From a virus (Duplodnaviria > Heunggongvirae > Uroviricota > Caudoviricetes), in IMG/VR virus record IMGVR_UViG_3300029305_011445: a stretch of 64,000 nucleotides of DNA. The stretch is one strand, 5' to 3'. A program made the position numbers and the translations under genes. The notes beneath the pieces are model-generated. The model was not told the origin of the DNA, did no database searches, and worked only from the letters and a program-made list of their open reading frames with translations. The first letter of the stretch is position 1. Every line of letters starts with the position of its first letter. Below, one piece after another: positions 1-64,000 of the stretch.

Positions 1-123
1 TCATCTGCCAGTTTAATCATAGCTGTCGGGAAATATGTAGTTGCTGCTAAATCAGGATTCGATCCAGCGCACCCAGATAATAAGCACGTACATGCTGTAA
101 TAATCACAAATAATTTTTTCATT
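1..123 (-). CDS. lipoprotein, 5' part only (gene runs off window start)
   Basis: ATG at 123-121 on minus strand preceded by AAAGGAG; translation MKKLFVIITACTCLLSGCAG has a lipobox; consensus promoter motif at 156-167. Confidence 0.55.
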
Positions 124-155
124 GTTTTATTCTCCTTTTAAATTTGTTTTGTAAA

Positions 156-167
156 ATAAATATGGTA
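156..167 (-). promoter_or_regulatory. consensus promoter motif (ACCATATTTATT in gene orientation)
   Basis: exact copy ~30 nt upstream of lipoprotein start 123. Confidence 0.6.
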
Positions 168-170
168 TGT

Positions 171-593
171 CTAATTTGTGTTTAATAAATCATCGTACCA
201 ATCGATTATGGTGTCTTTTAAATCTCGGATTGAAGCATTTACATTCCAAATAACAACTCCATAAAACTTTTCTTTTGGAATCTCACCAAACGTTCTGCTA
301 TCTAAACTATTGTCCATATTATCTCCGATCACATACAATCCGTTTTCTGATGATAAATCTTCGTAATATCGTTTTACAATTAATTCGCACTCAATATCAA
401 GTTCTCCGGCTTTAATAATAACAATATCCTGATCTTCTGGCTTCGCTTTTATATCAACAATAAGATAATCACCATCATAAAGCGTTGGATACATAGATTC
501 TCCAACAACTTGAGTAATGCCCATGTGATTCGTTGAAATCACAAGAAGTGTAACGATTATAGTATTTATAAGTCTTTTAACACGTTTAAACAT
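171..593 (-). CDS. signal peptidase I (S26 family)
   Basis: N-terminal TM then GESMYPTL (catalytic Ser), VKRY (catalytic Lys), GDNxxNSLDSR box. Confidence 0.85.
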   Translation of the reverse strand: MFKRVKRLINTIIVTLLVISTNHMGITQVVGESMYPTLYDGDYLIVDIKAKPEDQDIVIIKAGELDIECELIVKRYYEDLSSENGLYVIGDNMDNSLDSRTFGEIPKEKFYGVVIWNVNASIRDLKDTIIDWYDDLLNTN

Positions 594-645
594 TTGTATA
601 CCTCTTTACATTTATTTTATGACTTAAAAACTTTGATTCGAAATA

Positions 646-897
646 TTACTGCTGCATAAGTTTTTTGGTGACGTATTCTAACGGAGCAGCATGATCCGGT
701 TCCTTCATTAACCGCACCCGTAATATCTGCAGCTGAGATCTATTTGAAATATCCGCTAATCGTTCATAAGTAAGAGACGATTGATTGGATTTAATTCGTT
801 GATAAAGATCTTCCCATTCTTTATCTGAAAACATTTGTGCCTGAATCATATATCCTCCTAAAGTTAAAACAAAAACACTATGTTTTATTAGGTCCAA
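646..897 (-). CDS. hypothetical protein
   Basis: 83 aa ORF, 6 nt from upstream gene, likely operon 904..1491>646..897>171..593. Confidence 0.5.
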   Translation of the reverse strand: MDLIKHSVFVLTLGGYMIQAQMFSDKEWEDLYQRIKSNQSSLTYERLADISNRSQLQILRVRLMKEPDHAAPLEYVTKKLMQQ

Positions 898-903
898 AAT
901 CGT

Positions 904-1491
904 TTAAAACGATGGTAAAAATTGTGTACCTGGGTTAATAGTTATGTTTTTATTAAAGGTTGCTTTGGAAAGCTCTGTTTGGTTGTCTTTAAACACATCA
1001 AATAATGCCGTCAATACTTCAATCGAATATGCTGATCGTTTCATTAAATCTAATCCGGAATCAATATTAAATTCACACGAGATTTTATCTGTATTTTTAC
1101 TATTTGTTAATCGTAGTTTCATAATCCCATCCCAGTGTTCTTCTACTCTTAGATAAAAGATGACATCCTTTGGTTCATAATGTATTCTGTAACTGGTAAC
1201 CCTTTGAGTCGAAATTAATTCATCGAACGAAAACAACAACCAATCACAATCTGCTTCGTACCCGGGCATCCATCGGTCTCTGTCGCCATGAACGCAGGAT
1301 AATACATATTTAATCAAATCATAATCAATCGATTCTTCTGCTTCGGAACGATTTATCGGTCGGTAATAAACCAATCGGTTATCAACGTAAAATTCAACCA
1401 TTGATGTTCCACCGTGTGGTCCTAGCCGGATCATGACATTGCGGTCTTCGTGCTTATATATATAATCTGTTGAAACTATTATGGTGTTCAT
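904..1491 (-). CDS. hypothetical protein
   Basis: ORF track start 1503 lies only 6 nt from promoter motif; second ATG (1491) has GGAGG RBS so start moved to MNTIIVS. Confidence 0.55.
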   Translation of the reverse strand: MNTIIVSTDYIYKHEDRNVMIRLGPHGGTSMVEFYVDNRLVYYRPINRSEAEESIDYDLIKYVLSCVHGDRDRWMPGYEADCDWLLFSFDELISTQRVTSYRIHYEPKDVIFYLRVEEHWDGIMKLRLTNSKNTDKISCEFNIDSGLDLMKRSAYSIEVLTALFDVFKDNQTELSKATFNKNITINPGTQFLPSF

Positions 1492-1509: not shown

Positions 1510-1521
1510 AATAAATATGGT
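1510..1521 (-). promoter_or_regulatory. consensus promoter motif
   Basis: exact copy 18 nt upstream of ATG 1491; limits TSS to within ~9 nt of motif. Confidence 0.6.
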
Positions 1522-1965: not shown

Positions 1966-2862
1966 TTATTTGTTTTCGGAGTAATTGCAAATAACTTTTG
2001 TACTGTCATCATGAACAAGTTCTATACCTGCAATGAGATTGTTCCATTGTTCTTCTGTGCCTTTAAAATATATGGTTAATTCTACATTTCGGTCATCATC
2101 TGATGTCCAAAAAGAACATTCTCCAATATTTTCTAAAGATGCTGGTAAAATCAATGTTTTTAAGTTTTTGCAGTTTGAAAAAGCGTATTCGCCAATTTCT
2201 GTAACGCCATCAGGTACTGTAATATCCTCTATAGCAGTGCCACCTAAAGCCCAATCACCTATTTTTGTTACGTTTACAGGAATCGTAACATTTTTTAAAT
2301 TTTTACAATGACCTAAAAGACTTTTCGATATTTCTGTTATATTTTCAGGTAATTTGATAGATGTTAAATTTTCGCAACTAGCAAATACGTTTACGCCAAA
2401 TTCAGTTACACTATTTGGAATAATAACTTCTTCCAATTCATAACATTTCCAAAAAGTGTCTGATTCAATTTTTGTAACACCATCTGGGATTTCAATACGT
2501 TTTAAAGATGATTGACTAAATGCAAAACCACCAATTTCTGTTACAGAATTTGGAATTTCAATATATGAAATACCATTCCAATTGTTTAACTGTCGAACAA
2601 ATGTTGCCGTTTCAGGGATTTTCAGTGTCAAATTAGTCCCATATTGTTCTGAATCTTCTAAAAATGCATTCCATTCATCAGGATGAATATAATCAGTGCC
2701 TAAATTGAATCCATATTTTTCGGCAAACGCATTGTATCCAATTACAAGCTCTCCAGACTCATTAAATAAACCATACTTTTCTACTTCTTCTTTGCCGCAT
2801 CCTGTAAATAAGGTAAGTATTGTTACAAACAATAATCCGAAACTTACAATTTTCTTTTTCAT
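1966..2862 (-). CDS. leucine-rich-repeat (BspA-type) lipoprotein
   Basis: signal peptide with LFTGCGKEE lipobox; repeated IPxxVTxIGxxAF units typical of BspA-like LRR surface proteins. Confidence 0.75.
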   Translation of the reverse strand: MKKKIVSFGLLFVTILTLFTGCGKEEVEKYGLFNESGELVIGYNAFAEKYGFNLGTDYIHPDEWNAFLEDSEQYGTNLTLKIPETATFVRQLNNWNGISYIEIPNSVTEIGGFAFSQSSLKRIEIPDGVTKIESDTFWKCYELEEVIIPNSVTEFGVNVFASCENLTSIKLPENITEISKSLLGHCKNLKNVTIPVNVTKIGDWALGGTAIEDITVPDGVTEIGEYAFSNCKNLKTLILPASLENIGECSFWTSDDDRNVELTIYFKGTEEQWNNLIAGIELVHDDSTKVICNYSENK

Positions 2863-2910: not shown

Positions 2911-2922
2911 CATAAATATGGT
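2911..2922 (-). promoter_or_regulatory. consensus promoter motif
   Basis: ACCATATTTATG upstream of 1966..2862; TTGTAA 9 nt further upstream. Confidence 0.6.
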
Positions 2923-2988: not shown

Positions 2989-4275
2989 TTACTGATTTGA
3001 TACGATTAATACATACATTACTTCATCATCATCTTCGTCGACTTCTAGTGAAAGATAATTTGAATTTTTAAATGCTTCACTAAATTCTTGATAATTAGAT
3101 TCTGTATCGTATTCTTTGTTTGCATACCCATCACTTAAAAAATAGATACATGAATCATATGATGTCCAAATTCTATCATCAACAGAAACTGTATTTGTGC
3201 ATGAATATAAGTCACCAAGCATTGCTTTTGCCTCAGCAATTGTTAATTCATCCTCATTAAATTTGAAATTGCCATCAGCTGCAACAATATCAATTGCTTC
3301 ATCTTCATCGTATGCAAATGGGATACAAATTGCAGTCAATGTACAATCGTAAATCGGAATCACATCATCTGTTCTATTTTCAATAGTAACTTCAATTTCT
3401 TCTGAATCTTTACAAGTTCTACTGAATACATCGATTTTAAAATTCAAAGATTCACCCGGTTCTGCGGTCAAACTATCAATATATCCTTCATCAGCAACAA
3501 ATATATTATCAGCATTTAAAAGTTTGCTAATTTTATCTTTGCCTACAGTATATACGACACCGTCTAACTTAAATTCCATATAATTGTAACCAGAGAATGG
3601 TTCGTCATAGTCTAAATCGTTTACTTTTATACCAAGTTCATCTCTGTAACTAAAATCAATGTTTTTGAACATTCTGTAATCAGATGCAAGAAAAGCACTA
3701 ACCATATTATTTTCAAAATTCGCACTAAAGTTCACATAAGATTTGTCGTCATATTTATTACTGACATCTTCCATAAGTGCAACAAATTTATCTTTGTTTT
3801 CTTGATTTGTCGCTTCCATACCATTGATTTTAACATTCATTGCTGTCATTGCCTTATGACCACCTGTTAATTGCATATTAACAATGATACAATCCTTCAT
3901 TGGTGTAAACACATTTTTTTCTGGAGTCATTAAATCAAATGAAGCATAAGCATCATCGATTCCTGCTATTTTGCGATCACCAGATCCTGTATTGTAACCA
4001 ACTAAATTAGAATCACTTAAATATAAGTTACGATCTTTTTCATCTTCAAATACATCGACAATTTCACCTAATGTTGTTTCACCTAAAACAACTGTTTTAC
4101 CCATAAATTCTACAGTAAACAATGGATCCAGTTTTTCAACCTTTTCTTCCTGTTTTACAACACTATTGTTACTGTCGATACCATTTGAATCAGTTACATT
4201 TGATTCAGAACCGCACGCTGCAAATAAACTTGTTGTCATAATTAATGACAACAACAAACATAATTTCTTTTTCAT
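2989..4275 (-). CDS. lipoprotein, unknown function
   Basis: MKKKLCLLLSLIMTTSLFAACGSE lipobox; own promoter motif (4325-4336) and terminator (2939-2974). Confidence 0.7.
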   Translation of the reverse strand: MKKKLCLLLSLIMTTSLFAACGSESNVTDSNGIDSNNSVVKQEEKVEKLDPLFTVEFMGKTVVLGETTLGEIVDVFEDEKDRNLYLSDSNLVGYNTGSGDRKIAGIDDAYASFDLMTPEKNVFTPMKDCIIVNMQLTGGHKAMTAMNVKINGMEATNQENKDKFVALMEDVSNKYDDKSYVNFSANFENNMVSAFLASDYRMFKNIDFSYRDELGIKVNDLDYDEPFSGYNYMEFKLDGVVYTVGKDKISKLLNADNIFVADEGYIDSLTAEPGESLNFKIDVFSRTCKDSEEIEVTIENRTDDVIPIYDCTLTAICIPFAYDEDEAIDIVAADGNFKFNEDELTIAEAKAMLGDLYSCTNTVSVDDRIWTSYDSCIYFLSDGYANKEYDTESNYQEFSEAFKNSNYLSLEVDEDDDEVMYVLIVSNQ

Positions 4276-4324: not shown

Positions 4325-4336
4325 AATAAATATGGA
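4325..4336 (-). promoter_or_regulatory. consensus promoter motif
   Basis: TCCATATTTATT upstream of 2989..4275. Confidence 0.55.
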
Positions 4337-7753: not shown

Positions 7754-8602
7754 TCAATTATAAAATGGAAGCCAATATATGATAGTTCCCATTATAGCAA
7801 CTACAAAAAAGGCTACTATCATTATTTTTTGTCCCATTTTAGTATGTTTCTCATACCTCTCCCATTGCTCAAGACCTAATATATCTTTTAATTCAAATTT
7901 TGGAAGAAATTCAAACTGAGTATTTACCGAGGAAGGCACTTTCTTTTTTACCATCTCGATAAACTCTTTGTCATACAGTTCATTTTCCTCTTTTAAAAGA
8001 GATTTTCCCGGCCACGGGTCTATATTTTCTCCCTTACTTAAGTAGTTAATGCAATCTACTATTTTTGATACACAAGCAAGCATTGTGATTGGAATATCTT
8101 TCTCATCTTTTATGTACAATGTTGCCATAAGATTCTCTTCCATTGTATCGGAATCCCATCTTTTTATTATCGCTATAAGATTTCCATCGTTATCGTATAG
8201 GCAAAAGGCATCGTTCATCCCAAAGAGCATATAGGATTTTTCATTATAATCTATTACATTTAATCCAATATTCTTATTTAATCCACGCTCTTCGCATTGT
8301 AAGGCATCCCAGTGATTAGTCATAACGCGTGTGCCGTTTTCATACACTCCAAATCCTATAGCCCATTCTCTTTTTGAAGAATAAGGGTATTTAAAGTTTA
8401 ATTCCTTTCTTTTAATGAGGATTGGTCTGTTTTTAAAACAATAGTTTTTATTGTTATATATCATCTGCGTATGAAAGCATTGTCCATTGGCAGCAATTGC
8501 AATTACATCCCCTGTCGTTTCGGATATGAACCACCATTTATTTAGCTGCTCTTTAAATAAGTTCTCTTGATATAATTTCAGAATCATAATCTTTTTCTCC
8601 AA
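7754..8602 (-). CDS. hypothetical protein with C-terminal TM helix
   Basis: 282 aa; own promoter motif at 8714-8725. Confidence 0.55.
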   Translation of the reverse strand: MEKKIMILKLYQENLFKEQLNKWWFISETTGDVIAIAANGQCFHTQMIYNNKNYCFKNRPILIKRKELNFKYPYSSKREWAIGFGVYENGTRVMTNHWDALQCEERGLNKNIGLNVIDYNEKSYMLFGMNDAFCLYDNDGNLIAIIKRWDSDTMEENLMATLYIKDEKDIPITMLACVSKIVDCINYLSKGENIDPWPGKSLLKEENELYDKEFIEMVKKKVPSSVNTQFEFLPKFELKDILGLEQWERYEKHTKMGQKIMIVAFFVVAIMGTIIYWLPFYN

Positions 8603-8713: not shown

Positions 8714-8725
8714 CATAAATATGGT
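8714..8725 (-). promoter_or_regulatory. consensus promoter motif
   Basis: ACCATATTTATG upstream of 7754..8602. Confidence 0.55.
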
Positions 8726-8909: not shown

Positions 8910-10175
8910 TTATCTCTTTGCCTTCCCACAATTGCTACAAAATCTACCTTCATTTTCTGCACCACATTCACAGGTCCATTTAGCTATTGGTGCCGGCTTA
9001 CCACATTCGCTACAATATTTACCTGTATTTGTCGCACCGCATTCACATGACCAAAAGTTCTTTGGTGCTGGCATTGGTTTGCCGCATTCGCTACAGAATT
9101 TACCCGTATTTACATTACCACATTCACATGTCCAACCGTTAGTCGTAGGTGTAGGATTTGTCACAATAGTGTTCTGTGCCGAATTCTGTTCTGCCGGTGT
9201 CATTAGACCGCTTAAACTTCCAAGTGTGCCATTCATAGCATTCATGCCCATACCAACGCCCATGAATCCAGCCATTGCACCACCTTCATTTGATCCGGCG
9301 GCTTTGATACCTTCTGTAATGTTTCTTACAGCCATGCCACGTAATACATTCGGATCGGTACCCATCATAGCACCTTCGTTACGCATATTGATAAGTTTCT
9401 GTGACTCTTCATCGTAAGAAATACTACCGATACCAACGGCCTGAATCTCCATGCCACGCATCTTTGTCCAATCTTCATCCAAGATATTGGCCATGTATTT
9501 ACCAAGTTCTAATGCTTTTGATGACACATGAGAAACTCTTGTCCCATCTGCTGACATCTGATTAATTGCAGACTGTAATGCTTGTAAGAACTCATTGATA
9601 TATTGTTCATTAATTTCTTCGATTTCAACTTTATTTGCGTTTCTTGGAATCACTTCTGCATAAAACTGTAACGGATTCGTAATCTTAATTGAATACGAAC
9701 CATGTGTTCTTAGAAATAGCTCTGCATTATAGAAACTGTCAAAGTAGTTAATCGGATTTCTTGTACCGAATTTGATACCTTTAATTTCCTGCAAATTGAT
9801 ATAGAAAACCTTCTGCATTCTAGGTGTTTCTCCACCAAATTTAATACGATTAAATGCATCTTTTAATGAATCACCAAACTGACCATTAAATAATGATGGC
9901 GTTGATGAATTATCAACCTTGTAATATCCCGGTTCAGCTGTATAGTCAACAATTTTACCACCATCAACAAGCAACATCATTTGATTATCGTAAACATGAA
10001 TCATTGAACCATTTGAAACTGTTACGTCAGTTCCTTTTGTATTTTGTCCTTTTCGAACCAAAACACCATTTGTGAATACGGTTCTTTCACCCATATCGTT
10101 TGGTTCAATTACCTCTAACCAGGTATCGGCAAACGAATCGCCTACTGCGCTTTTAATTGCCTGAATAAGTCCCAT
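8910..10175 (-). CDS. SPFH/band-7 domain protein with four C-terminal zinc-ribbon repeats (YdjI-like)
   Basis: N-terminal SPFH-like domain; C-terminus has four repeats of W(T/S)CECG..N.GK(F/Y)CSECGKP. Confidence 0.7.
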   Translation of the reverse strand: MGLIQAIKSAVGDSFADTWLEVIEPNDMGERTVFTNGVLVRKGQNTKGTDVTVSNGSMIHVYDNQMMLLVDGGKIVDYTAEPGYYKVDNSSTPSLFNGQFGDSLKDAFNRIKFGGETPRMQKVFYINLQEIKGIKFGTRNPINYFDSFYNAELFLRTHGSYSIKITNPLQFYAEVIPRNANKVEIEEINEQYINEFLQALQSAINQMSADGTRVSHVSSKALELGKYMANILDEDWTKMRGMEIQAVGIGSISYDEESQKLINMRNEGAMMGTDPNVLRGMAVRNITEGIKAAGSNEGGAMAGFMGVGMGMNAMNGTLGSLSGLMTPAEQNSAQNTIVTNPTPTTNGWTCECGNVNTGKFCSECGKPMPAPKNFWSCECGATNTGKYCSECGKPAPIAKWTCECGAENEGRFCSNCGKAKR

Positions 10176-10229: not shown

Positions 10230-10241
10230 ATAAATATGGTG
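10230..10241 (-). promoter_or_regulatory. consensus promoter motif
   Basis: exact copy upstream of 8910..10175. Confidence 0.6.
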
Positions 10242-10307: not shown

Positions 10308-10718
10308 TTAATAATTAGATTCTGTTTCAGATGCAACAACCGGTTCATATGGAATAAGTTCAAATAATACTTCTGCATCAATTCCATTGATATGAATCAC
10401 TCCTGGCTTTAAATCGTATACAGTATCATTGACTACTGCTACAACTTTTTTGATACTTTTCCATTTGTTTAACAGTCTAATAACATCATATGGATTAGGA
10501 TTCTTTGAAATGCCGCATCCGGAATTACGTACCGGAAATTTATTGCTGCCAGTTACAAGGCACAAACAATTCGGGACTTCTTTTGACATCGTTACATAAG
10601 CTACGGTTCGGTATCGAATACTTTCATTATTTGTAACCTGCATATCGTAACAAATATGACTGTCGCTCCAATCAATGTTTAAAAACTCTTCTCTTGTCAT
10701 AGTTATGACTCCTTTCAT
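10308..10718 (-). CDS. hypothetical protein
   Basis: 136 aa ORF with own promoter motif (10738-10749) and upstream hairpin. Confidence 0.5.
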   Translation of the reverse strand: MKGVITMTREEFLNIDWSDSHICYDMQVTNNESIRYRTVAYVTMSKEVPNCLCLVTGSNKFPVRNSGCGISKNPNPYDVIRLLNKWKSIKKVVAVVNDTVYDLKPGVIHINGIDAEVLFELIPYEPVVASETESNY

Positions 10719-10737: not shown

Positions 10738-10749
10738 AATAAATATGGT
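10738..10749 (-). promoter_or_regulatory. consensus promoter motif
   Basis: exact copy upstream of 10308..10718. Confidence 0.6.
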
Positions 10750-12106: not shown

Positions 12107-12118
12107 AATAAATATGGT
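12107..12118 (-). promoter_or_regulatory. consensus promoter motif
   Basis: exact copy upstream of PARP gene. Confidence 0.6.
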
Positions 12119-48246: not shown

Positions 48247-48252
48247 AACATA

Positions 48253-52854: not shown

Positions 52855-53597
52855 TGATTAACCTCCTTACTCTGTTTCATCTTGTTTAAAGCTTTTCTGT
52901 GAATCTGAGAAATTCTGGATTCGGTTACATTAAGAACCAGCGCAATTTCCGCAATTGTCATATCTTCGTAATAAATCATTCGAATCACGTCGCGTTCTCG
53001 GTCCGTAAGTTTGCTCATTGCTAAATCCAGTATGCGATGTAAATCTTCTTGTAGCGCATTTAATTCACAAACATTAAATGAATCATGACCCAGTATATCA
53101 AATGAATACTCATCACCATCTGGTGAGAATAAAATTGCATCCAAAGATGATGCCTCTTCTAAAGTAGCTAATTGTTCCAAATTCGTAAATTCTTTACTTG
53201 AAAGTTTACTAACAGATAACAACTGTTGACGAGTATAATTAGGACCGTATGTATCTTGTGCTATAATACAAAATTGTTTGAATCGCTTTTGTTGATCCCT
53301 GGTACTACGTTTAATCTGATCAAAAGTTCTTAAGTTATCAACAATAGACCCTTTGATCCTATGAGATGCATAAGTTTCAAATTTAACATCCAAAGACGGG
53401 TTGTATTTTTCAATCGCGTCAAGAAGACCTAAAATACCGAAGCTTTCATAATCCGACTGTTCTAAAAGATACGAAGCCGTTTTTGCATATAATTGTGCAG
53501 CCAAAAGCTTTACTAGACCGGCATATTCTTTTATCAATAATTCCCGATACCGGGGTTCTCCGGTCTCTTTATATAATTCAAGATTCGTTTTATCCAT
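52839..53597 (-). CDS. FliA/WhiG (sigma-28) family sigma factor
   Basis: 252 aa; region 2 ILGLLDAIEKYNPSLDVKFETYASHRIKGSIVDNLR; region 4 MTIAEIALVLNVTESRISQIHRKAL; variant motif AATAAATATGTT at 53625-53640. Confidence 0.8.
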   Translation of the reverse strand: MDKTNLELYKETGEPRYRELLIKEYAGLVKLLAAQLYAKTASYLLEQSDYESFGILGLLDAIEKYNPSLDVKFETYASHRIKGSIVDNLRTFDQIKRSTRDQQKRFKQFCIIAQDTYGPNYTRQQLLSVSKLSSKEFTNLEQLATLEEASSLDAILFSPDGDEYSFDILGHDSFNVCELNALQEDLHRILDLAMSKLTDRERDVIRMIYYEDMTIAEIALVLNVTESRISQIHRKALNKMKQSKEVNQWIVV

Positions 53598-53676
53598 TTC
53601 CTAAAACTCCTTATAAATTCATTTGTAATAAATATGTTTGAAATTCATACAAAGTAATTCCTTTGTAACGATAGCA

Positions 53677-53688
53677 ACCATATTTATT
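53677..53688 (+). promoter_or_regulatory. consensus promoter motif
   Basis: exact copy upstream of RecU-like gene. Confidence 0.6.
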
Positions 53689-53722: not shown

Positions 53723-54214
53723 TTGAAAAATACAGGAAAAATATTTGAAGATGATTTTAAAGCATCTGTTCCAAGAGACGTTTACTACTTACGATTACAT
53801 GATTCGTCCATTGGGTTTGATATTGCACATAGCACGCAGCGGTTTTCGTTAAAATCACCGTACGATGCAGTGCTTTGTAAAAATGGAAAAATGTATGCAC
53901 TTGAATTGAAAAGCCACAAAGGTAAAAGCATGTCATTTGGTGATAAAAAGGATAAAGTAATCAAAATGAGACAGGTCGAAAACTTATTAGCAGCAAAAGA
54001 AGTGGGCGGTGCTGTAGCGGGACTCATATTAAACTTTAGTGATTACGAAGAAACATATTTTATTGATGCTAGAAAGTTTTATGATTTTACACAAACCTGT
54101 GGTAAGAAAAGTATCAATCTTGATAATGTGAGAGAGTTCGGTATTAAAATTCCATGCGAAAAGAAAAAGACTCATTATCGATATGATTTAAATCCAATCT
54201 TAAAGAATAGTTAA
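53723..54214 (+). CDS. PD-(D/E)xK nuclease, RecU/Holliday-junction-resolvase-like
   Basis: DAVLCKNGKMYALELKSHKG (D...E-L-K core); track start ATG 53690 is only 1 nt after promoter motif 53677-53688, so in-frame TTG 53723 with GGGAG RBS preferred. Confidence 0.5.
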   Translation: MKNTGKIFEDDFKASVPRDVYYLRLHDSSIGFDIAHSTQRFSLKSPYDAVLCKNGKMYALELKSHKGKSMSFGDKKDKVIKMRQVENLLAAKEVGGAVAGLILNFSDYEETYFIDARKFYDFTQTCGKKSINLDNVREFGIKIPCEKKKTHYRYDLNPILKNS

Positions 54215-54235: not shown

Positions 54236-54247
54236 ACCATATTTATT
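54236..54247 (+). promoter_or_regulatory. consensus promoter motif
   Basis: exact copy upstream of micro-ORF 54282. Confidence 0.55.
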
Positions 54248-54281: not shown

Positions 54282-54425
54282 ATGAATAATATAACGTTAG
54301 TGGATCATCCGGAACAATATGGTATTGTAGACGAAGAATATGAATTAACTGTTTTAGCGCAACAGAAATTACATCGAAAACGAAAAAATTGTGAAACAGA
54401 ATCAGAAGAGGCTTACAGTTTGTAA
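54282..54425 (+). CDS. 47-aa micro-protein
   Basis: AAAGGAG RBS, ATG 54282, MNNITLVDHPEQYGIVDEEYELTVLAQQKLHRKRKNCETESEEAYSL; promoter motif 54236-54247; hairpin GCTTACAGTTTGTAAGC + T-run right after stop. Confidence 0.45.
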   Translation: MNNITLVDHPEQYGIVDEEYELTVLAQQKLHRKRKNCETESEEAYSL

Positions 54426-54456: not shown

Positions 54457-54468
54457 ACCATATTTATG
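54457..54468 (+). promoter_or_regulatory. consensus promoter motif
   Basis: ACCATATTTATG upstream of SleB-like gene. Confidence 0.6.
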
Positions 54469-54502: not shown

Positions 54503-55189
54503 ATGAAATTAATAAAAAGAGCAGCAATTGATGCATTATTTGTGTTTGTATTAATGAACAGTACAATTCCGGATTCAGCAGCAAATGGATTCAATTTAGA
54601 CTTGTTAACGCAACATAAGAACGGAACAGTTTCAGAAGCAACAGATTTGGATTTAGACTTACATCCAGTCAAGTTTAGCACTGTTAAAAGATCTTTTGAG
54701 TCAGATTCAGTTGCGAGCATAACAAAGAAAATGCCACTATATGTAGCATCTGGTGAAGAAACTCTTTTAACAAATGATTCAGATTCCAAAACAATAACCC
54801 AAGATGTCATAGAACCTAAAAATCGTTGGAACATCGAATTAACAGAAGACGAGATTGAGTTACTCGCAAAAATCTTATGGCTTGAAGCACGTGGAGAACC
54901 AGAAGATGGTCAACGTGCGGTTGTTGAAGTTATATTCAATCGTATTGTATCAGATAAATTTCCAGACACATTATATGATGTATTAAGTCAAGATGATCCG
55001 GTTCAATTTTGTTCATGGAAAAATCGAGATAATGCAACGCCTACCGAAAAGGAATATGAATCAATCAATACTGTACTAAACGGAGAATCAGAATTGCTAA
55101 AAGAAAACACAGTATTTTTTGCAACATCTCCGCATAATAAAAATATTGATATTCAAATTGGTGGACATTATTTTTGTTACAAAGAGTAA
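54503..55189 (+). CDS. SleB/CwlJ-type cell-wall hydrolase with signal peptide
   Basis: LAKILWLEARGEPEDGQRAVVEVIFNRI...YDVLSQ...QFCSW hydrolase_2 signature; promoter motif 54457-54468. Confidence 0.8.
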   Translation: MKLIKRAAIDALFVFVLMNSTIPDSAANGFNLDLLTQHKNGTVSEATDLDLDLHPVKFSTVKRSFESDSVASITKKMPLYVASGEETLLTNDSDSKTITQDVIEPKNRWNIELTEDEIELLAKILWLEARGEPEDGQRAVVEVIFNRIVSDKFPDTLYDVLSQDDPVQFCSWKNRDNATPTEKEYESINTVLNGESELLKENTVFFATSPHNKNIDIQIGGHYFCYKE

Positions 55190-55275: not shown

Positions 55276-55287
55276 ACCATATTTATT
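55276..55287 (+). promoter_or_regulatory. consensus promoter motif
   Basis: exact copy upstream of 55326. Confidence 0.6.
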
Positions 55288-55325: not shown

Positions 55326-55511
55326 ATGGAAAGTATTAAACAATTAATTTACGGTGTCATCGCTTTAATGTTAGGTTTATCATTTGCAAGATGGGGCGTT
55401 GCTTTAGCACATCCTGTAGCAGCAATGATTTATATTAGCATTGCAATGGTATCATTGTTTGTTGCGGCGATGTGGTTTACATTTGTTGTAACAGATGAAC
55501 TTTTTAAATAA
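55326..55511 (+). CDS. small membrane protein (2 TM)
   Basis: 61 aa hydrophobic; AAAGGAG RBS; promoter motif 55276-55287; terminator before and after. Confidence 0.5.
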   Translation: MESIKQLIYGVIALMLGLSFARWGVALAHPVAAMIYISIAMVSLFVAAMWFTFVVTDELFK

Positions 55512-55576: not shown

Positions 55577-55588
55577 ACCATATTTATT
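55577..55588 (+). promoter_or_regulatory. consensus promoter motif
   Basis: exact copy ~150 nt upstream of 55740. Confidence 0.55.
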
Positions 55589-55739: not shown

Positions 55740-56936
55740 ATGGCAAAGAAAACACAGAGTATCGCAACAATGGTAGCAGGTCAGAAAAGAACTGGTCGTG
55801 AGATTATTGGTCTCATTGCGGAAAACAAAGTTGACGCAAATAAGAAATATGTGTTAACAGCGTATGATGCAGAGGAAGGTGAACTCACCTTCACAGAACA
55901 GTTACCAGACGACGCGCCAGAAGGTACAGTTGCTAACGTAGTTAAGATTACTGAGGCAAATGCAGCAGTAATGCGTTATGTAGTAAACCCTAACGAGAAA
56001 CCGGTTCCAGAGGCTTCTGTTATCAATAAAGATGGCGAGAAGTATTTAAAGATCGGTGAACGTGAAGTATACCTTGGTACTATTGAAGCGGAAAAGGTTG
56101 TTGCCGGTTACACAGGAGAAATTATTCTTGGTGTAAAGAGTGACGAAGAAGGTCAGATCGGATTACTTCGTTATGACGTACAGTTTGACAAATTTGACTC
56201 GGCTCCATTTGCAACAATTTCAGCAGATGCGAAAGTTGTTGTGGTTGCTGAAAATACTTACATTATCAATAATGTAATCAAAGATGTTGAACAGATTGAT
56301 GCAAATGGCAATAAGATTGTCGATGAGAACGGTGACGTTGTAACAAAACCACATTTAGTTGCTGCAGAGTTATTGCAGTATACTGGTAATGGACATTTAA
56401 TCTCCAGACTCTCAGATTATGAAGAATATTATGATGAGGATGAAGATGAATATTACAATGAGGCCGTATCAGCACTCAATGTTCCAATTGAAAGCGTACG
56501 TCTTGTTGAGCAGGGCGAACGTAAAGATCTTGCAATTGTTACAACAAAAGAAGTTGATGACGATGGCTATCTTGTAACCGCAGCGAATGCAACAATCATC
56601 TTATTCAGATTAAGTGATTATGCAAGAGTTGGATCCTTTGAAGTTACGGATGCAGAAGCTAAGGTTTATCTTGGTGGATCATTCCGCAAGGCTCCGGTTG
56701 TAACTGTAAAAGATTCCGGTCAGATTTTGATCCGTGACAACTACGGTTTACATGTGGTGAAAACTGCGGCTGTTGTAACTGCAATGGAAGGTTACAACTA
56801 TTTCTGTGGAACAGAAGTGAAAAAAGATGATGACGAGAATGAAGTTGTCATCTACACATACGCAAACAAAGATTCAGCAGTGAAGTCATTCAAGATGACA
56901 AAATCTGATAGAGGTATTTTGTTTGAAATGATGTAA
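55740..56936 (+). CDS. acidic hypothetical protein (398 aa)
   Basis: AGGAGG RBS; promoter motif 55577-55588 is ~150 nt upstream (long leader). Confidence 0.6.
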   Translation: MAKKTQSIATMVAGQKRTGREIIGLIAENKVDANKKYVLTAYDAEEGELTFTEQLPDDAPEGTVANVVKITEANAAVMRYVVNPNEKPVPEASVINKDGEKYLKIGEREVYLGTIEAEKVVAGYTGEIILGVKSDEEGQIGLLRYDVQFDKFDSAPFATISADAKVVVVAENTYIINNVIKDVEQIDANGNKIVDENGDVVTKPHLVAAELLQYTGNGHLISRLSDYEEYYDEDEDEYYNEAVSALNVPIESVRLVEQGERKDLAIVTTKEVDDDGYLVTAANATIILFRLSDYARVGSFEVTDAEAKVYLGGSFRKAPVVTVKDSGQILIRDNYGLHVVKTAAVVTAMEGYNYFCGTEVKKDDDENEVVIYTYANKDSAVKSFKMTKSDRGILFEMM

Positions 56937-56996: not shown

Positions 56997-57008
56997 ACCA
57001 TATTTATT
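56997..57008 (+). promoter_or_regulatory. consensus promoter motif
   Basis: exact copy upstream of HTH ORF 57033. Confidence 0.6.
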
Positions 57009-57032: not shown

Positions 57033-57344
57033 TATGAAATAAAAAACAACACAATCGATACACGACAAACCGGGTTCAATATTTTCTCGAAGCGAGAAAA
57101 TCTCGGACTCAGTCGTAGTAAACTTGCAGAATTATTAAATGTATCTGTGGTGATGGTGTATAAATGGGAATCTGGAGAAAAAATGCCTGGTGTTAGTACA
57201 TTTTTAATGATGTCACATTTATTTAAAACGCCCTTGGATCAAATAATTATCGCTGACAAAATTAAAATGCAAGATTATTACACAAGAGTCAAAGAATTTG
57301 AAGCAGAAATAAACGAACCAGAAGAAGATTTTGAACTAGAATAA
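57033..57344 (+). CDS. XRE-family HTH regulator interrupted by an in-frame TAA at codon 3 (possible pseudogene or non-canonical start)
   Basis: ATG AAA TAA then in-frame ...IFSKRENLGLSRSKLAELLNVSVVMVYKWESGEKMPGVSTF (complete HTH) with no canonical start between the stop and the HTH; promoter motif 56997-57008 and AAAGATGGAG RBS point at the ATG 57033. Confidence 0.4.
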   Translation, partial: YEIKNNTIDTRQTGFNIFSKRENLGLSRSKLAELLNVSVVMVYKWESGEKMPGVSTFLMMSHLFKTPLDQIIIADKIKMQDYYTRVKEFEAEINEPEEDFELE

Positions 57345-58137: not shown

Positions 58138-58149
58138 GCCATATTTATT
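58138..58149 (+). promoter_or_regulatory. consensus promoter motif
   Basis: GCCATATTTATT upstream of 58192. Confidence 0.55.
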
Positions 58150-58191: not shown

Positions 58192-58941
58192 ATGAAACAG
58201 AATTATATTGATATCGAATTTATTAAAAAATGGGTAAACATTAGTGAAGAAGAACTTATGAGGCGTCTTGTGAAAGATGCAGTTGCTTTGCAGAAAGAAG
58301 CTGAAGAAAACAAAGCAGCATTAGAAACACAGGAACGACTTAATGATCCAAAATATCCTGGTATCGTTCTTAAGTTCTGGAGACAGGTTCCATATTTGCG
58401 TCAGTATTTTACCGATGATGAGATTGTTGTAGTTGCTGCAAAACATCTTAGCATCAGAGATTTGACGCAGGAGCATTTTGTTCGCGGTTTTAGATGCAAA
58501 GAAGATATTGAGCATATCGAAAAACATGCGAATATGGAATTTTTACGTCATGAACGTAGACACAGATTTGAAGAATACAAAAGCGGTTGGAAACGTGAAG
58601 TCGAAGACGAAGCCGATGTATTCTTAATGGCAAGTCAGTATCAGAGTTGTCACGATGGTAATCCGGTACGAGAATTATTAGAATCAAAGCTTCCGTATCT
58701 GAAGAAATACACAACAGAAGTGCATTCTTTAAACAAAAATAATGATTGGATCTATATTAAATTAAATGACCACTCATTGTATTGTCCTGTATCAGCATTA
58801 TTTGCAAAAGATGCTGATAAGATTGTCTCGACGCATCTTAATTATTGGCATGGTTATGGCAGTGGCAAATATGATAAACGTGAACAGGCATTTATCGAAT
58901 CGGATACTGTAAAAGAGTTTTTAGCGGATGTAAAAGGATAA
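58192..58941 (+). CDS. hypothetical protein
   Basis: start moved to ATG 58192 (AAAGGAG RBS) downstream of promoter motif 58138-58149. Confidence 0.6.
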   Translation: MKQNYIDIEFIKKWVNISEEELMRRLVKDAVALQKEAEENKAALETQERLNDPKYPGIVLKFWRQVPYLRQYFTDDEIVVVAAKHLSIRDLTQEHFVRGFRCKEDIEHIEKHANMEFLRHERRHRFEEYKSGWKREVEDEADVFLMASQYQSCHDGNPVRELLESKLPYLKKYTTEVHSLNKNNDWIYIKLNDHSLYCPVSALFAKDADKIVSTHLNYWHGYGSGKYDKREQAFIESDTVKEFLADVKG

Positions 58942-59000: not shown

Positions 59001-59012
59001 ACCATATTTATT
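59001..59012 (+). promoter_or_regulatory. consensus promoter motif
   Basis: exact copy upstream of 59050. Confidence 0.6.
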
Positions 59013-59049: not shown

Positions 59050-59361
59050 ATGATCCAATGGAAACAATTAACAGTAGATTGGTCCACTTTCCCGATGCAA
59101 AGTGATATAACATCATTTGATCGTAAAGGAGAAGTTTATGTAACACTTACAAACGAATCATTTAAACATGATGATAAGTTATATCGTGTTTGTATTGTTG
59201 ATCACAGACGTTCCAAAACAAAAGAGTTCATTCGATGGAGTGAATCATTACATACGCTTCCATCAGAATATGGTCCATATGTTTACGCACGTGGCAGAAA
59301 AGTGTATGTTGGTGCATTATTGAAAAACGTAAGAGAAGGAGAACCAAACTATGAAAATTAA
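59050..59361 (+). CDS. hypothetical protein
   Basis: 103 aa; AAAGGAG RBS; promoter motif 59001-59012. Confidence 0.55.
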   Translation: MIQWKQLTVDWSTFPMQSDITSFDRKGEVYVTLTNESFKHDDKLYRVCIVDHRRSKTKEFIRWSESLHTLPSEYGPYVYARGRKVYVGALLKNVREGEPNYEN

Positions 59362-60872: not shown

Positions 60873-61082
60873 TTATTTCATTAACTCATTTCGATTGTCA
60901 CTCGTAACAACAATCATTCCATTTTCTACTCTACCAGTGATTCGCCAGCCGCAATGTCTACACGTTCTTTCAAACGTATTATCTTCAACAATAAATTTGC
61001 TGCCATTGCCTACTGTATCATCACCGCAAACAGGACATATTGCTACAGTTTCTGTTATTTTTCCAATTGAACTCATATCCAT
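60873..61082 (-). CDS. small zinc-ribbon protein
   Basis: start trimmed to ATG 61082 (AAGGAG RBS) because promoter motif 61132-61143 lies within the longer track ORF; CPVCGDD...CRHCGW. Confidence 0.5.
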   Translation of the reverse strand: MDMSSIGKITETVAICPVCGDDTVGNGSKFIVEDNTFERTCRHCGWRITGRVENGMIVVTSDNRNELMK

Positions 61083-61131: not shown

Positions 61132-61143
61132 TATAAATATGGT
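61132..61143 (-). promoter_or_regulatory. consensus promoter motif
   Basis: ACCATATTTATA upstream of 60873..61082. Confidence 0.55.
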
Positions 61144-61210: not shown

Positions 61211-61222
61211 ACCATATTTATT
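61211..61222 (+). promoter_or_regulatory. consensus promoter motif
   Basis: exact copy upstream of 61255. Confidence 0.6.
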
Positions 61223-61254: not shown

Positions 61255-62115
61255 ATGAATTTATTTGAAGGATTAGAGATGTTTGGTCTCAAAACAGAAG
61301 GGTCCAGTTTATTTGAAGACGATAAGAAAACTGAAACAAACGCAGACGGATCAAAAACAGCTGTTGAGAAAATTCCAACAGAGGATGAGTTTTTAATTGA
61401 AAAGAAAATAAAATGTCCTATTTGTGACAAAGAATTTAAGACACGTGCAATCAAGAATGGTAAATTAAGACGATTAGAATCAGATCCGGATCTTCGTCCA
61501 AGGTACCAGTATATTGATTCCATTAAATATGATATCTATTCATGTCCGCATTGTGGTTATACGGCAATGCCACGGTATTTTGACCATTTATCTTCGGTAC
61601 AAGCAAAACTGATTAAAGAAAAACTTTGCGCCAATTTCAAGGCAACAGAAGAAACTGTGCCGGAAACATATGATTACGATTATGCAATTGACCGATATAA
61701 GTTGGCATTATATGGCGCTGTTGCAAAGATGGGTAAGGCGAGTGAAAAGGCATATAACTGTTTAAAACTTGCATGGCTGTATCGTGGCAAAGCTGAAAGT
61801 TTAGATAAAACTGCTGCAGATTATGAAGCAACATTAAAAGCATGCAAAGACCAGGAAGAAATGTTTTATGGTCAAGCATATGAAGGTTTCATGAAAGCGG
61901 TATCAGCCGAAATGTTCCCAATGTGTGGTATGGATCAGAATACCATGGATTATTTATTAGCATACATGGCAGCACATTTTAAGCGATATGATGTTGCATC
62001 AAAGTGTATTGCAAACATTTTACAGTCATCATCAGCACAAAGTAAGACCAAAGAGCGTGCCAGAGATTTAAAGGAACAGATTGTAGCTGAGATTAAAAAG
62101 AGTAAGGAGCAATAA
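61255..62115 (+). CDS. zinc-ribbon plus helical-repeat protein (DUF2225-like)
   Basis: start at ATG 61255 (GGAGG RBS); CPICDKEF...CPHCGY; promoter motif 61211-61222. Confidence 0.55.
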   Translation: MNLFEGLEMFGLKTEGSSLFEDDKKTETNADGSKTAVEKIPTEDEFLIEKKIKCPICDKEFKTRAIKNGKLRRLESDPDLRPRYQYIDSIKYDIYSCPHCGYTAMPRYFDHLSSVQAKLIKEKLCANFKATEETVPETYDYDYAIDRYKLALYGAVAKMGKASEKAYNCLKLAWLYRGKAESLDKTAADYEATLKACKDQEEMFYGQAYEGFMKAVSAEMFPMCGMDQNTMDYLLAYMAAHFKRYDVASKCIANILQSSSAQSKTKERARDLKEQIVAEIKKSKEQ

Positions 62116-62117
62116 CA

Positions 62118-62588
62118 ATGGCAAAGAAATTTAGATACATTATGTGTGGCATGTTTTGTGGAACAGATGGTGAACAGTATGAGATTAACTTGCCGTCACA
62201 TTTGATGCATGATACAGAAGCAAAAGCAATGGTTGATGGAAATTTTGGTTATCGATTTGTATGGTTCGCCGGATCAAACGAACCCGAAATTATTGTCTAT
62301 GAAAGAGAGAATTTTGAAGTCATTGAAGATGGTGGCGGAAAACATTTGAAGCAGTGGGTTGAGGGAAATGTTGTTAAGATATATACTTTTGATGAGTTTA
62401 AAGCTGTAGGCGGATATATTCGTATGTTAAAACCGGAGCTTAAAGGATGTGGGTACATTGATGCTGAAACAGATTTTCTTGATACAAATAAAACGTTTCT
62501 GGATGTATTTTTAAATATGCAGAAGCAGAAATTGTATTATATTGATCATTTAGCATATTCGATTGAAACAATTGAAGATGAATTTTAA
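62118..62588 (+). CDS. hypothetical protein
   Basis: 156 aa, 3 nt after upstream gene; terminator 62604-62640. Confidence 0.55.
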   Translation: MAKKFRYIMCGMFCGTDGEQYEINLPSHLMHDTEAKAMVDGNFGYRFVWFAGSNEPEIIVYERENFEVIEDGGGKHLKQWVEGNVVKIYTFDEFKAVGGYIRMLKPELKGCGYIDAETDFLDTNKTFLDVFLNMQKQKLYYIDHLAYSIETIEDEF

Positions 62589-62800
62589 ATAATGCAAATA
62601 AAAAGAACCGGTGCGAGAGTGTACCGGTTCTTTGTTGTTTTGTTACGATTTGATTTATGGATATTGTATGTATCCTTTTTATAATGCTTATATCGCTTAT
62701 GTGTAACATTAGCGTTTTGATACATAATAATTGTTGCAGACATTCCACAATTCATAATTCGTGTTTCACCAATTCGTTCTTTTACTTTGTTTTTACCCAT
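62585..62800 (-). CDS. possible small basic protein (doubtful)
   Basis: 71 aa ORF preceded by variant motif AATTAAATATGGAC (62843-62858) but its 3' third runs through the terminator hairpin of the convergent gene. Confidence 0.25.
   Translation of the reverse strand: MGKNKVKERIGETRIMNCGMSATIIMYQNANVTHKRYKHYKKDTYNIHKSNRNKTTKNRYTLAPVLFICII
62604..62640 (+). terminator. rho-independent terminator
   Basis: AGAACCGGTGCGAGAGTGTACCGGTTCT + TTGTTGTTTTG. Confidence 0.7.
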
Positions 62801-62945
62801 TAGCTTAAATATTATCCTTATTCGATTACTTTTATTTGTTTCAAATTAAATATGGACATATGAAGGACAAAGCAATAGATTAAGATATCTGCTTTTATAG
62901 AATTACACAATAATAAAGGAGCCAAGGATTTCTTGGCTCCTAAAT

Positions 62946-63605
62946 TTACACTGCTTCAAATTCTTTCAATGAAGCTTTAAAACATTCCATTACTTTGGGA
63001 TTAAACACACCACAATTACCATTTAAAATCATTGAAACGGCTTTTTCACGTTCCACTGCACCACGATAGATCTTTTGGTTTACTAAAGCATCGTAAACAT
63101 CTGCAATGCCAACAATATGCGCCCAGATTGGAATCTTTTCTCCAATCAATCCTTCTGGGTATCCTTTTCCATCCCAGCGTTCATGATGATATTTACAAAT
63201 ATCAAAGCAATAACGATAGAATTCGTCTTCATATTGAACGAATCGGTCTAAAATTTCACAACCATACAAAGTATGTCTTTTAACTTCTGCAAATTCATCA
63301 CTAGTTAATTTTCCAGGTTTCATCAAAATCTCATCTGGTATCACAATTTTACCGATATCATGCAACGCTGATGCAGTAGTAATAAGTTTACAATCTGCCT
63401 CTGTAATGCCATATTCCGGATACAAATTCATAACCTTACGAATCATGATATTCGTATAAGCTTGAATTCTCTTTACATGTTCGCCAGATTCCAAATCACG
63501 GAATTCGCAAATAGAACTAAGGATAGCTACTAAAAAACTAATCGTATTATCTAGTTGTTCTTCCTGTGTAATGTCTGATATAACCGTGGCGCTCTGAAAC
63601 TTCAT
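62946..63605 (-). CDS. HD-GYP domain phosphodiesterase
   Basis: start trimmed to MKFQS (63605); LHDIGK, HHERWDGKGYP, DVYDAL. Confidence 0.8.
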   Translation of the reverse strand: MKFQSATVISDITQEEQLDNTISFLVAILSSICEFRDLESGEHVKRIQAYTNIMIRKVMNLYPEYGITEADCKLITTASALHDIGKIVIPDEILMKPGKLTSDEFAEVKRHTLYGCEILDRFVQYEDEFYRYCFDICKYHHERWDGKGYPEGLIGEKIPIWAHIVGIADVYDALVNQKIYRGAVEREKAVSMILNGNCGVFNPKVMECFKASLKEFEAV

Positions 63606-63811
63606 AATGTACGTTCCTTTTCCTTCTGATACATAAATAAAACTATAAACAGTCCAATAATAATGCAAATAGGCATCATCATATTAATGAGCAATGCCCA
63701 TGTCTCTGATAAAAACAGATCTAAAACGATAGCGATAATCTTACCTGATAAACCACCTGCAATAATTGCTAATACAATCCATTTAATCCAACGTTTTTCT
63801 ATACTATCCAT
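63602..63811 (-). CDS. small membrane protein (2 TM) translationally coupled to HD-GYP gene
   Basis: 69 aa hydrophobic; stop overlaps HD-GYP start by 4 nt. Confidence 0.5.
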   Translation of the reverse strand: MDSIEKRWIKWIVLAIIAGGLSGKIIAIVLDLFLSETWALLINMMMPICIIIGLFIVLFMYQKEKERTL

Positions 63812-63813
63812 TT

Positions 63814-64000
63814 TTATTCTCCTTTATCGATATCCTTTTTCATTTCCGGATCCGGAGTTCCTTCCTGGCTTGTATGAGTTGATTCCAAAACATCATCACG
63901 ATAATCTCGTAAATATTCCATTGAATAAGGAGTGAGATTCATAGTTTGAGCTTTGTACGTAAATGGTTGTCCACATTCATCGCATGCAGCAGTTAAATCA
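63814..64000 (-). CDS. 3' end of a gene running off the window end (zinc-ribbon-containing C-terminus)
   Basis: open frame from window end to TAA at 63814-63816: ...LTAACDECGQPFTYKAQTMNLTPYSMEYLRDYRDDVLESTHTSQEGTPDPEMKKDIDKGE. Confidence 0.4.
   Translation of the reverse strand, partial: DLTAACDECGQPFTYKAQTMNLTPYSMEYLRDYRDDVLESTHTSQEGTPDPEMKKDIDKGE

Follow-up and report, generated by a model that had tools for sequence, protein, structure and literature searches.

The 64,000-nt stretch of DNA analysed here (the window), from virus record IMGVR_UViG_3300029305_011445, corresponds to bases 32,839-96,838 of a 135,915 bp JGI metagenome contig, of which 82.4 kb (the window and its flanks) were read. 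A simple gene model of our own, compared with the gene calls that accompany the source contig, assigns 85% of the window to coding sequence, and a 10-bp sequence, CCATATTTAT, recurs in the gaps between its genes. The genes recognised on the element are ParA/ParB, three chemoreceptors (methyl-accepting chemotaxis proteins, MCPs), UvrD, PIN-PhoH, RecJ, a kinase-phosphatase-RNA ligase, PARP, PARG, a dUTPase, NrdD, SSB, a RecU-like protein, a MobV relaxase and two sigma factors, one RpoD-like and the other FliA/WhiG-like. Phage structural genes were looked for among the genes of the element and none was found; no Rep protein was recognised in the window, no tRNA or Rfam RNA was matched, and a megablast search that compared 24 kb from the window with PLSDB plasmids and GenBank phages returned no match. 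The element is read as a large plasmid, perhaps a phage-plasmid, because Rep_3 initiators, a type IV coupling protein, ParM-like proteins and MobV are found in its distant relatives. A chemoreceptor protein (P0121) 100% identical to the MCP at 24279-26033 is also encoded on a 157.8 kb contig, and among the full-length chemoreceptor homologues with a named source Lachnospiraceae predominate, so that this family is suggested as the host.

Exact copies of CCATATTTAT number 34 in the window, where shuffles that preserve dinucleotides average 0.42 and never exceed 2; with one mismatch allowed, 58 matches are found and 12.8 expected. All 34 exact copies are intergenic, in DNA that is ~85% coding, and all are co-oriented with the next gene, the start codon of which lies 19-152 nt downstream (median 41). 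Seven one-mismatch variants occupy the same promoter-like position (four of CCATATTTAA, two of TCATATTTAT and one of ACATATTTAT), and the motif goes on outside the window, with 50 exact copies in the 82.4 kb read (6.07 per 10 kb). A preliminary description of the window had claimed about 36 exact and about five one-mismatch copies, oriented with the downstream gene, and had named a similar density of the motif inside coding sequence and throughout the host chromosome as an observation that would speak against its proposal; no exact copy is seen in the coding sequence of the window. The 36 coordinates it listed are all real, and the enrichment and orientation stand, while the counts become 34 exact copies and seven variants, two of the listed positions (41222 and 42833) carrying CCATATTTAA. 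The claim that the motif precedes nearly every gene was, by contrast, overstated: an upstream gap with the motif is found for 39 of the ~70 genes of the window (~55-60%). Nineteen further genes begin <60 nt after the preceding gene and are probably co-transcribed with it; most of the genes that lack the motif are in such short operons, and about eight sites carry a different sequence, TGRNCCTAAT.

The anatomy of the sites extends beyond the ten invariant positions. T occupies motif position 11 in 28 of 34 sites; directly upstream, A is preferred (often as cATA), with a T-rich stretch beyond; downstream, a pyrimidine-then-purine step is common at positions 13/14-15 and is followed by an A-rich stretch at positions 16-24. 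A TTGYAA-like hexamer, previously described as a TTG-type hexamer in a subset, lies exactly 9 or 10 nt before the leading CC at 16 of the 34 window sites and at 24 of 58 sites on the extended contig, and nothing else that resembles a -35 element is seen at the sites without it. Sequences of the generic TTGACA-17-TATAAT pattern are no commoner in the window than expected (72 matches, where 83 are expected). A strict terminator hairpin with T-run stands ≤70 nt upstream of 24 of 58 sites, as against 3% of random positions, and further imperfect hairpins are seen by eye; the units of terminator, promoter, ribosome-binding site (RBS) and open reading frame (ORF) first described by reading are thus borne out. 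With many genes ending in an intrinsic terminator, the element is proposed to be organised as short insulated units of one specificity. In the tightest case (1511-, gene 904..1491), a GGAGG RBS begins 9 nt after the motif and the ATG follows at 19 nt; thus, the motif must be -10-proximal, as had been argued from this gene. CCATATTTAT is very likely a promoter core that forms the -10 region (sites in Table 1). Two other origins were considered and rejected: a repeat element or miniature inverted-repeat transposable element (MITE), as conservation in the flanks is limited to the T-run and TTGYAA, and a role at the RNA level, as the motif stands directly after terminators, leaves too little space for a promoter upstream of it and has neither an Rfam nor a tRNA match.

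The motif is rare in chromosomal control loci. Those around rpoD (1.24 Mb from 80 species, many of them Firmicutes) hold 0.056 exact copies per 10 kb, so that the element is ~100-fold denser. Within 121 kb of control loci, six from Lachnospiraceae and two from related genera, two exact copies occur, and the chromosomal locus with the closest chemoreceptor homologue has none. A scan of IMG/VR with the 14-mer ATACCATATTTATT gave, among the matches listed, mostly single and apparently chance occurrences, and a full-text search of papers for the motif sequence found primers and unrelated sequences only.

As the preliminary description noted, the element carries two sigma genes, of which the RpoD-like one is preceded by the exact motif and the FliA/WhiG-like one by ACATATTTAT. 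The RpoD-like sigma (347 aa), a full-length factor like those of groups 1 and 2, has Firmicutes SigA as its closest solved structures (E = 2e-44, ~40% identity), matches RpoD/RpoS models over its full length and matches SigK models over region 2 only. Its scores against NCBIfam equivalogs are 197 bits where the RpoD cut-off is 572 (NF006666) and 205 where the RpoS cut-off is 379; judged by these scores, it is a member of the sigma-70 superfamily only, not an equivalog of housekeeping RpoD/SigA. Region 4.2 (TRERVRQ) is canonical, as are the His and Glu of region 3.0. By contrast, AYHW stands in place of ATWW and IIMEGN in place of LIQEGN, the latter being replaced by LIMEGN in the whole clade to which this sigma belongs. 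At the promoter of the sigma gene (29147-), the exact motif is overlapped by a near-canonical TTGCAA-N16-TATAAC.

The clade is small, with only ~20 of 5.8 billion proteins scoring above the ordinary RpoD background. IMG/VR yielded no relative of the sigma. A profile search of genome contigs with the sigma alignment was dominated by ordinary RpoD genes (best 39% identity) and gave no close relative and no host among the matches listed; the ordinary rpoD loci that it returned were reused as negative controls. A metagenome scan with a trimmed, family-specific segment of the sigma gave three weak loci, all without the motif.

Nine clade-bearing elements, the contig of the window included, were compared, the sigmas of the other eight being 36-60% identical to that of the window. 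In seven of these eight, CATATT lies 15-100 nt upstream of 40-70% of the genes that have an upstream gap, where chance gives 5-11%; the distance of CATATT(TA) in these seven is mostly about 30-55 nt. Two elements, designated L004 and L008 (sigmas 60% and 49% identical, respectively), share the gene order of the window (ParAB-sigma-60 aa-MCP/UvrD-PhoH) and have the identical CCATATTTAT in front of genes; among the orthologous uvrD promoters (24211- in the window, L004 and L008), TACCATATTTATT is the sole conserved block, and the orthologous sigma promoter conserves TTGCAAAAC...ACCATATTTA. The form yCATATTTAw is found in L217 (42%), L228 (39%) and L224 (36%), the last a plasmid with Rep_3, ParA and MobV; Rep_3 adjoins the sigma gene in L224 and in L226. 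L216 (41%) has CATATTTAT plus a separate box, TGTACAGAA, and L009 (41%) keeps only (C)CATATT. Conservation is thus graded across the family, CATATT being kept most widely, the TA after it less so and the C and T on the flanks least.

In E. coli, W433 is the -12 wedge tryptophan of the sigma factor. The corresponding residue, the first W of the WW pair, is H, R, N or A in the seven clade members whose elements have CATATTTA, and it is kept in P0008 (from L009, CATATT only) and in P0246 (from L226, without CATATT). This covariation of the W433 change with CATATTTA is suggestive over the nine elements.

A 60-aa gene directly follows the sigma gene in the window, L004 and L008, which suggests a conserved operon of the sigma and a small regulator; Pfam gave the 60-aa protein a weak, sub-threshold DnaB_2 match only. 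In the sub-branch of L216 and L226, another intergenic box is present in 8-11 copies per element (GTGTACAGAA in L216 and TTGTACAAAA in L226). Each version contains the palindrome TGTACA and stands at a variable distance upstream of CATATT/CATACTT, behaviour that would fit an operator.

The preliminary description left two options for the main motif, promoters read by a dedicated sigma or RNA polymerase and a global operator network. The first is favoured because of the strict orientation, the lack of a palindrome, the tight distance to start codons, the overlap with the -10, the presence of CATATT in seven of the eight other elements and the ~100-fold rarity in control loci. An operator overlapping every promoter, bound by an XRE-type protein, the 60-aa protein or a MotA-type activator and comparable to the KorA/KorB system of IncP plasmids, would account for invariance at the level of an operator; two XRE-type genes are present in the window, as is the small, possibly ribbon-helix-helix gene beside the sigma gene, and the TTGYAA box, at about -28, has what we take to be the geometry of the T4 MotA box. 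However, CCATATTTAT is asymmetric, always gene-oriented and at a fixed distance from start codons, not the palindromic, orientation-free sequence of KorA/KorB-type operators; thus, the motif occupies the -10 position itself, and no other conserved -10 element is found at the sites. The 60-aa gene is, moreover, not beside the sigma gene in L217, L224 and L228, which keep the motif, and no regulator co-varies with it. An operator at every promoter is rather improbable, and by our grading nothing positive is in its support.

The best explanation overall is that CCATATTTAT marks a dedicated promoter class of a large plasmid-like element, read by the element's own sigma; we give this a probability of roughly 0.6. 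Sigma-70-type factors flip out and capture A at -11 and T at -7. In the proposed mechanism, the -10 hexamer would be CATATT (motif positions 2-7), which puts C at -12, A at -11 and T at -7; the invariant C preceding it would stand at -13, TAT(T) would form a fixed discriminator at -6 to -3, and transcription would start ~7 nt after the hexamer, at motif position 14-15. The promoter would be independent of a -35 element, which about half of the sites do not have. CATATT is favoured as the hexamer because it is the part conserved across the family and because, within the conserved core, it provides the sole register with A at -11 plus T at -7, both of which are then found at every site. It is further favoured because most of the region 2.3 residues that we take to form the -11A pocket look conserved in the sigma, and because the predicted start falls on the pyrimidine-purine step at 14-15, with a 6-nt leader in the tightest case. 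The reader would be the host core RNA polymerase combined with the RpoD-like sigma of the element, an assignment that we infer and consider probable. Host SigA is proposed to use TTGCAA-N16-TATAAC at the sigma gene, thereby starting the circuit and making the first sigma; two registers could coexist, with host SigA acting at box-containing sites, that of the sigma gene included. A SigK-type reading of the motif (CATA-N3-TA) was rejected, as the last two bases misfit and the sigma is not SigK-like.

It is unlikely that host housekeeping SigA alone serves these sites, with TTGYAA as the -35, a 16-17 bp spacer and TATTnT as the -10, while the sigma of the element serves elsewhere; CCATATT would then be an unusual extended -10 or a spacer element. 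Ten invariant bases over 34-50 sites are far beyond the conservation of housekeeping promoters, and the ~100-fold rarity of the motif in the 1.24 Mb of chromosomal loci, Lachnospiraceae included, also speaks against SigA. The TTGYAA box, which lies at exactly 9-10 nt in 16 of 34 sites, does give the 16-17 bp spacer to TATTnT, and the promoter of the sigma gene does read as TTGCAA-N16-TATAAC; however, half of the sites have no -35 element. While CATATT matches TATAAT at four of six positions, L009 keeps CATATT and not the TAT that the TATTnT register requires. SigA alone would also leave unexplained the divergent RpoD-like sigma encoded by every element of the family.

Several points weigh against a dedicated promoter class read by the element's sigma. 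The register and the start site are predictions from the sequence. With CATATT as the -10, TTGYAA lies 10-11 nt upstream (about -28), which is not the canonical -35 position; the zone 16-18 bp upstream of CATATT is only T-rich and offers no TTGACA-like element, and a -35 at such spacing is obtained at 16 of 34 sites, and there solely if the alternative register is taken. This alternative, TTGYAA-N16/17-TATTnT, fits the box-bearing sites but fails for L009 and for the box-less half. The L009 sigma keeps both tryptophans and still pairs with CATATT; thus, the tryptophan change fails to explain C at -12. L226 (36%) encodes a sigma of the family, yet is without CATATT. The relatives were sampled via the sigma gene, which makes the co-occurrence of sigma and motif partly circular, and the rarity of the motif was measured in chromosomal loci of the control species. 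TTGYAA at about -28 could reflect sigma region 4 sitting at a non-canonical place, or a co-activator of the MotA kind; this is a slim prospect.

A further alternative is that another factor or polymerase reads CCATATTTAT, either the FliA-like sigma or an RNA polymerase, single-subunit or non-canonical, with its gene in the remaining ~54 kb of the contig. The search covered 82 kb, ~40% of the contig lies beyond, and several large proteins (692 and 625 aa) are without a family match. The single-subunit polymerase that the preliminary description had proposed to look for in the flanking sequence left no sign in the 82 kb read: no ORF of >150 aa has a DxDGD catalytic motif, and no polymerase is matched in Pfam, PHROG or NCBIfam. 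Promoters of the T7 type span the start site with a block of roughly 20 bp, whereas the conserved block here is 10 bp. The -10 element of FliA-type sigmas is GCCGATAA, unlike CCATATTTAT, and a FliA-type promoter reading of the motif was rejected, as no TAAA-N15-CCGATA site is present. As the relatives found via the RpoD-like sigma share the motif and a minor motif fits the FliA type better, a different polymerase or sigma is very improbable.

This minor motif, (TT)TGRNCCTAAT(AA), occurs in eight copies in the window, where 0.94 are expected. Seven of the eight are in promoter position, mostly before genes without CCATATTTAT; one copy stands between the PhoH gene and the CCATATTTAT site that precedes it, and another is found upstream of the promoter of the sigma gene itself. 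The motif was not found in L004 or L008. TGRNCCTAAT has a loose likeness to the FliA-type CCGATAA, a FliA-like sigma is among the products of the element, and the sites may represent a second promoter class.

Taken to its full extent, the proposal of a dedicated sigma-promoter pair would describe a family of large plasmids of uncultured Firmicutes, probably of Lachnospiraceae, with natural orthogonal transcription, in which a plasmid-borne, SigA-derived sigma without W433 reads CATATT-TAT (C at -12, fixed discriminator) and most genes are rewired to it as short units insulated by terminators, so that expression depends little on the promoter specificity of the host. This wider version is tentative, and the odds are somewhat against it.

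Table 1. Positions in the window of the predicted promoter cores, of their one-mismatch variants and of the minor motif, with the key regulatory genes
Feature	Position	Strand	Gene or remark
CCATATTTAT	156..165	-	gene starts near 122, runs off left window end
CCATATTTAT	1511..1520	-	904..1491; tightest case, 19 nt to ATG
CCATATTTAT	2912..2921	-	1966..2862 (leucine-rich repeat lipoprotein); TTGTAA 10 nt upstream
CCATATTTAT	4326..4335	-	2989..4275
CCATATTTAT	8715..8724	-	7754..8587; 127 nt leader
CCATATTTAT	10230..10239	-	8910..10175 (Band_7_1 / zinc-ribbon protein)
CCATATTTAT	10739..10748	-	10308..10700
CCATATTTAT	12108..12117	-	10841..12070 (PARP-domain protein)
CCATATTTAT	13627..13636	-	12179..13573 (HNH/homing-endonuclease-like protein)
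CCATATTTAT	14674..14683	-	14160..14597
CCATATTTAT	16980..16989	-	14736..16937 (kinase-phosphatase-RNA ligase)
CCATATTTAT	17321..17330	-	small ORF 17063..17236
CCATATTTAT	18066..18075	-	17389..18024
CCATATTTAT	19112..19121	-	18852..19070
CCATATTTAT	21239..21248	-	19804..21162 (PIN-PhoH); second-motif site TGAGCCTAAT in between
CCATATTTAT	24211..24220	-	21970..24171 (UvrD-like helicase)
CCATATTTAT	29147..29156	-	sigma gene 28059..29102; TTGCAA 9 nt upstream
CCATATTTAT	32657..32666	+	32705..33817
CCATATTTAT	38511..38520	-	36578..38455
CCATATTTAT	40373..40382	-	38664..40319 (RecJ-like)
CCATATTTAT	41170..41179	-	small ORF 41023..41127
CCATATTTAT	43666..43675	+	43700..44008, then chemoreceptor (MCP) gene 44029..45639
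CCATATTTAT	48006..48015	+	small ORF 48055..48249
CCATATTTAT	51281..51290	+	MobV relaxase gene (about 51329..52630)
CCATATTTAT	53678..53687	+	53723..54214 (RecU-like)
CCATATTTAT	54237..54246	+	54282..54425
CCATATTTAT	54458..54467	+	54503..55189 (cell-wall hydrolase)
CCATATTTAT	55277..55286	+	55326..55511
CCATATTTAT	55578..55587	+	55740..56936; 152 nt leader
CCATATTTAT	56998..57007	+	57033..57344 (XRE-type helix-turn-helix protein)
CCATATTTAT	58139..58148	+	58192..58941
CCATATTTAT	59002..59011	+	59050..59361
CCATATTTAT	61133..61142	-	60873..61082; divergent from site at 61212
CCATATTTAT	61212..61221	+	61255..62115 (DUF2225)
Variant TCATATTTAT	19680..19689	-	18 nt before ATG of XRE gene 19176..19661; promoter role less certain
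Variant CCATATTTAA	32581..32590	-	upstream of 31476..32510 (Band 7 protein)
Variant CCATATTTAA	41223..41232	+	upstream of 41270..42781; TTGCAA 10 nt upstream
Variant CCATATTTAA	42834..42843	+	upstream of 42873..43601
Variant TCATATTTAT	48920..48929	+	TTGCAA 10 nt upstream; then GGAGG, ATG at 48957
Variant ACATATTTAT	53628..53637	-	30 nt upstream of FliA/WhiG-like sigma gene 52839..53597
Variant CCATATTTAA	62846..62855	-	upstream of 62585..62800
TGRNCCTAAT	887-896	-	
TGRNCCTAAT	21198-21207	-	
TGRNCCTAAT	29235-29244	-	
TGRNCCTAAT	33745-33754	-	
TGRNCCTAAT	34329-34338	-	
TGRNCCTAAT	45693-45702	+	
TGRNCCTAAT	46923-46932	+	
TGRNCCTAAT	48288-48297	+	
RpoD/SigA-like sigma, 347 aa	28059..29102	-	proposed motif reader; regions 1.2, 2, 4
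60-aa protein	27862..28044	-	directly after sigma gene; ribbon-helix-helix look by reading of sequence
FliA/WhiG-like sigma, 252 aa	52839..53597	-	second sigma; candidate reader of minor TGRNCCTAAT motif, not CCATATTTAT

Other features of the element include repeat regions. An iteron-like region at 49,825-51,261, directly upstream of the MobV relaxase gene, is a candidate origin of replication (oriV) or of transfer (oriT). It includes five tandem 17-nt units (TCTGGTTTCGGrgtatc) at 50,001-50,088 and ~12-14 copies of a ~26-nt unit, AKATACATCATCTAGCTGGGGTAGTT, spaced 44-55 nt apart, and 80-nt inverted repeats at 49,825-49,904 and 51,182-51,261 bracket the array (49,980-50,900). An AT-rich non-coding region at 40,460-40,940, upstream of the promoter of the RecJ-like gene (40373-) and adjoining ORF 41023..41127, has three copies of a ~108 nt unit and many TAATACTGTAACA-like sub-repeats; a second origin and a centromere are possibilities. 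The parA-sigma intergenic region (29,284-29,340), upstream of parA, has the palindrome TTGGAAGTACTTCCAA with GGAAGTGCTTCG nearby, and in the relative L008, GAAGCACTTC occurs six times at about 3,716-4,698. These three sequences are candidate parS/ParB sites, distinct from the promoter motif.

Left of the window (15653-18780 of segment L010), an HNH endonuclease gene interrupts the NrdD gene, for an anaerobic ribonucleotide reductase, and leaves it as two ORFs, which looks like an insertion of the homing-endonuclease or intron type. Motility-type genes at 24279-27829(-), 44029-45639(+), 62946-63605(-) and 52839-53597(-) encode the three MCPs, an HD-GYP-type phosphodiesterase and the FliA-like sigma, and suggest that the element may alter the motility or chemotaxis of its host. 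In the relative L009, genes like those of type IV pili or type II secretion systems are in the corresponding place.

If the link between sigma and motif is true, a plasmid rather than a lytic phage brings a near-housekeeping sigma and has most of its genes controlled by a single invariant promoter, which would show a route to host-independent expression in large mobile elements. The pair of sigma and promoter, with its 10-bp core, would be compact enough to serve as an orthogonal expression module for Firmicutes, and the C at -12, the loss of the W433 wedge and the fixed discriminator would amount to a natural experiment on -10 recognition. The motif could also serve as a marker by which metagenome fragments that belong to this plasmid family are spotted and their transcription units annotated.

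Among known promoters, those of sigma-A/sigma-70 share with the sites described here an A at -11 with a T at -7 (provided that the hexamer is CATATT), a canonical sigma region 4.2 and, at about half of the sites, a TTG-containing hexamer. They differ in that C, not T, would stand at -12, ten positions are invariant, the -35-like box is 10-11 nt off instead of 17, the W433 wedge is replaced and the motif is ~100-fold rarer in chromosomal control loci. The sporulation sigmas SigE, SigK and SigG use CATA-type -10 elements, and the -10 proposed here likewise has CAT(A) at its start and extends over more than six bases; the exact consensus differs, however, and no AC- or ATA-type -35 is found. The IncP KorA/KorB system resembles the element in placing one short sequence at many plasmid promoters, and a ParB homologue is present here as well. 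While Kor operators are palindromes that act independently of orientation and are variably placed relative to promoters, the present motif is asymmetric, gene-oriented and at the -10, and the likely parS-like palindrome of the element is a different sequence, GGAAGTACTTCC.

Closer likenesses are found among phages. The late promoters of T4 (TATAAATA) are recognised by gp55 together with gp33 and the sliding clamp, and those of SPO1 by gp28 or by gp33-34; the late -10 element of SPO1, GATATT, resembles CATATT. As in those systems, a near-invariant A/T-rich -10 of 8-10 bp would suffice without a -35 and would be read by a dedicated specificity factor. By contrast, gp55 and gp34 are small, highly divergent sigmas that need co-factors and define one temporal class; no homology to gp55 or gp34 was found here, and the element gives no sign of temporal classes apart from its minor second motif.

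Phages phiEco32 and 7-11 encode a sigma that uses a single 9-bp promoter element, and host promoters as well as phage promoters drive the gene for that sigma (PMC4331800). Their promoters (TAATGTATA / TGATGT..TATA) are likewise the property of a mobile element with its own sigma-70-family factor, consist of a single short, near-invariant -10 element without a -35, and were found as an over-represented intergenic motif; the sigma gene of the present element also appears to have both a host-type and an element-type promoter. phiEco32 and 7-11 are, however, lytic phages with ~6-10 such promoters for middle and late genes, whereas the element described here is plasmid-like (ParAB, iterons, MobV) and has 41 sites in 64 kb that cover most transcription units. 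The motif sequence is unrelated to theirs, and the sigma is full-length and close to Firmicutes SigA. By analogy, CCATATTTAT may work as do the dedicated promoters of the mobile-element sigmas of phiEco32, 7-11, T4 late and SPO1; what differs here is the plasmid-like replicon, the coverage of most transcription units instead of one temporal class, the near-housekeeping sigma and the motif, the sequence of which is new.

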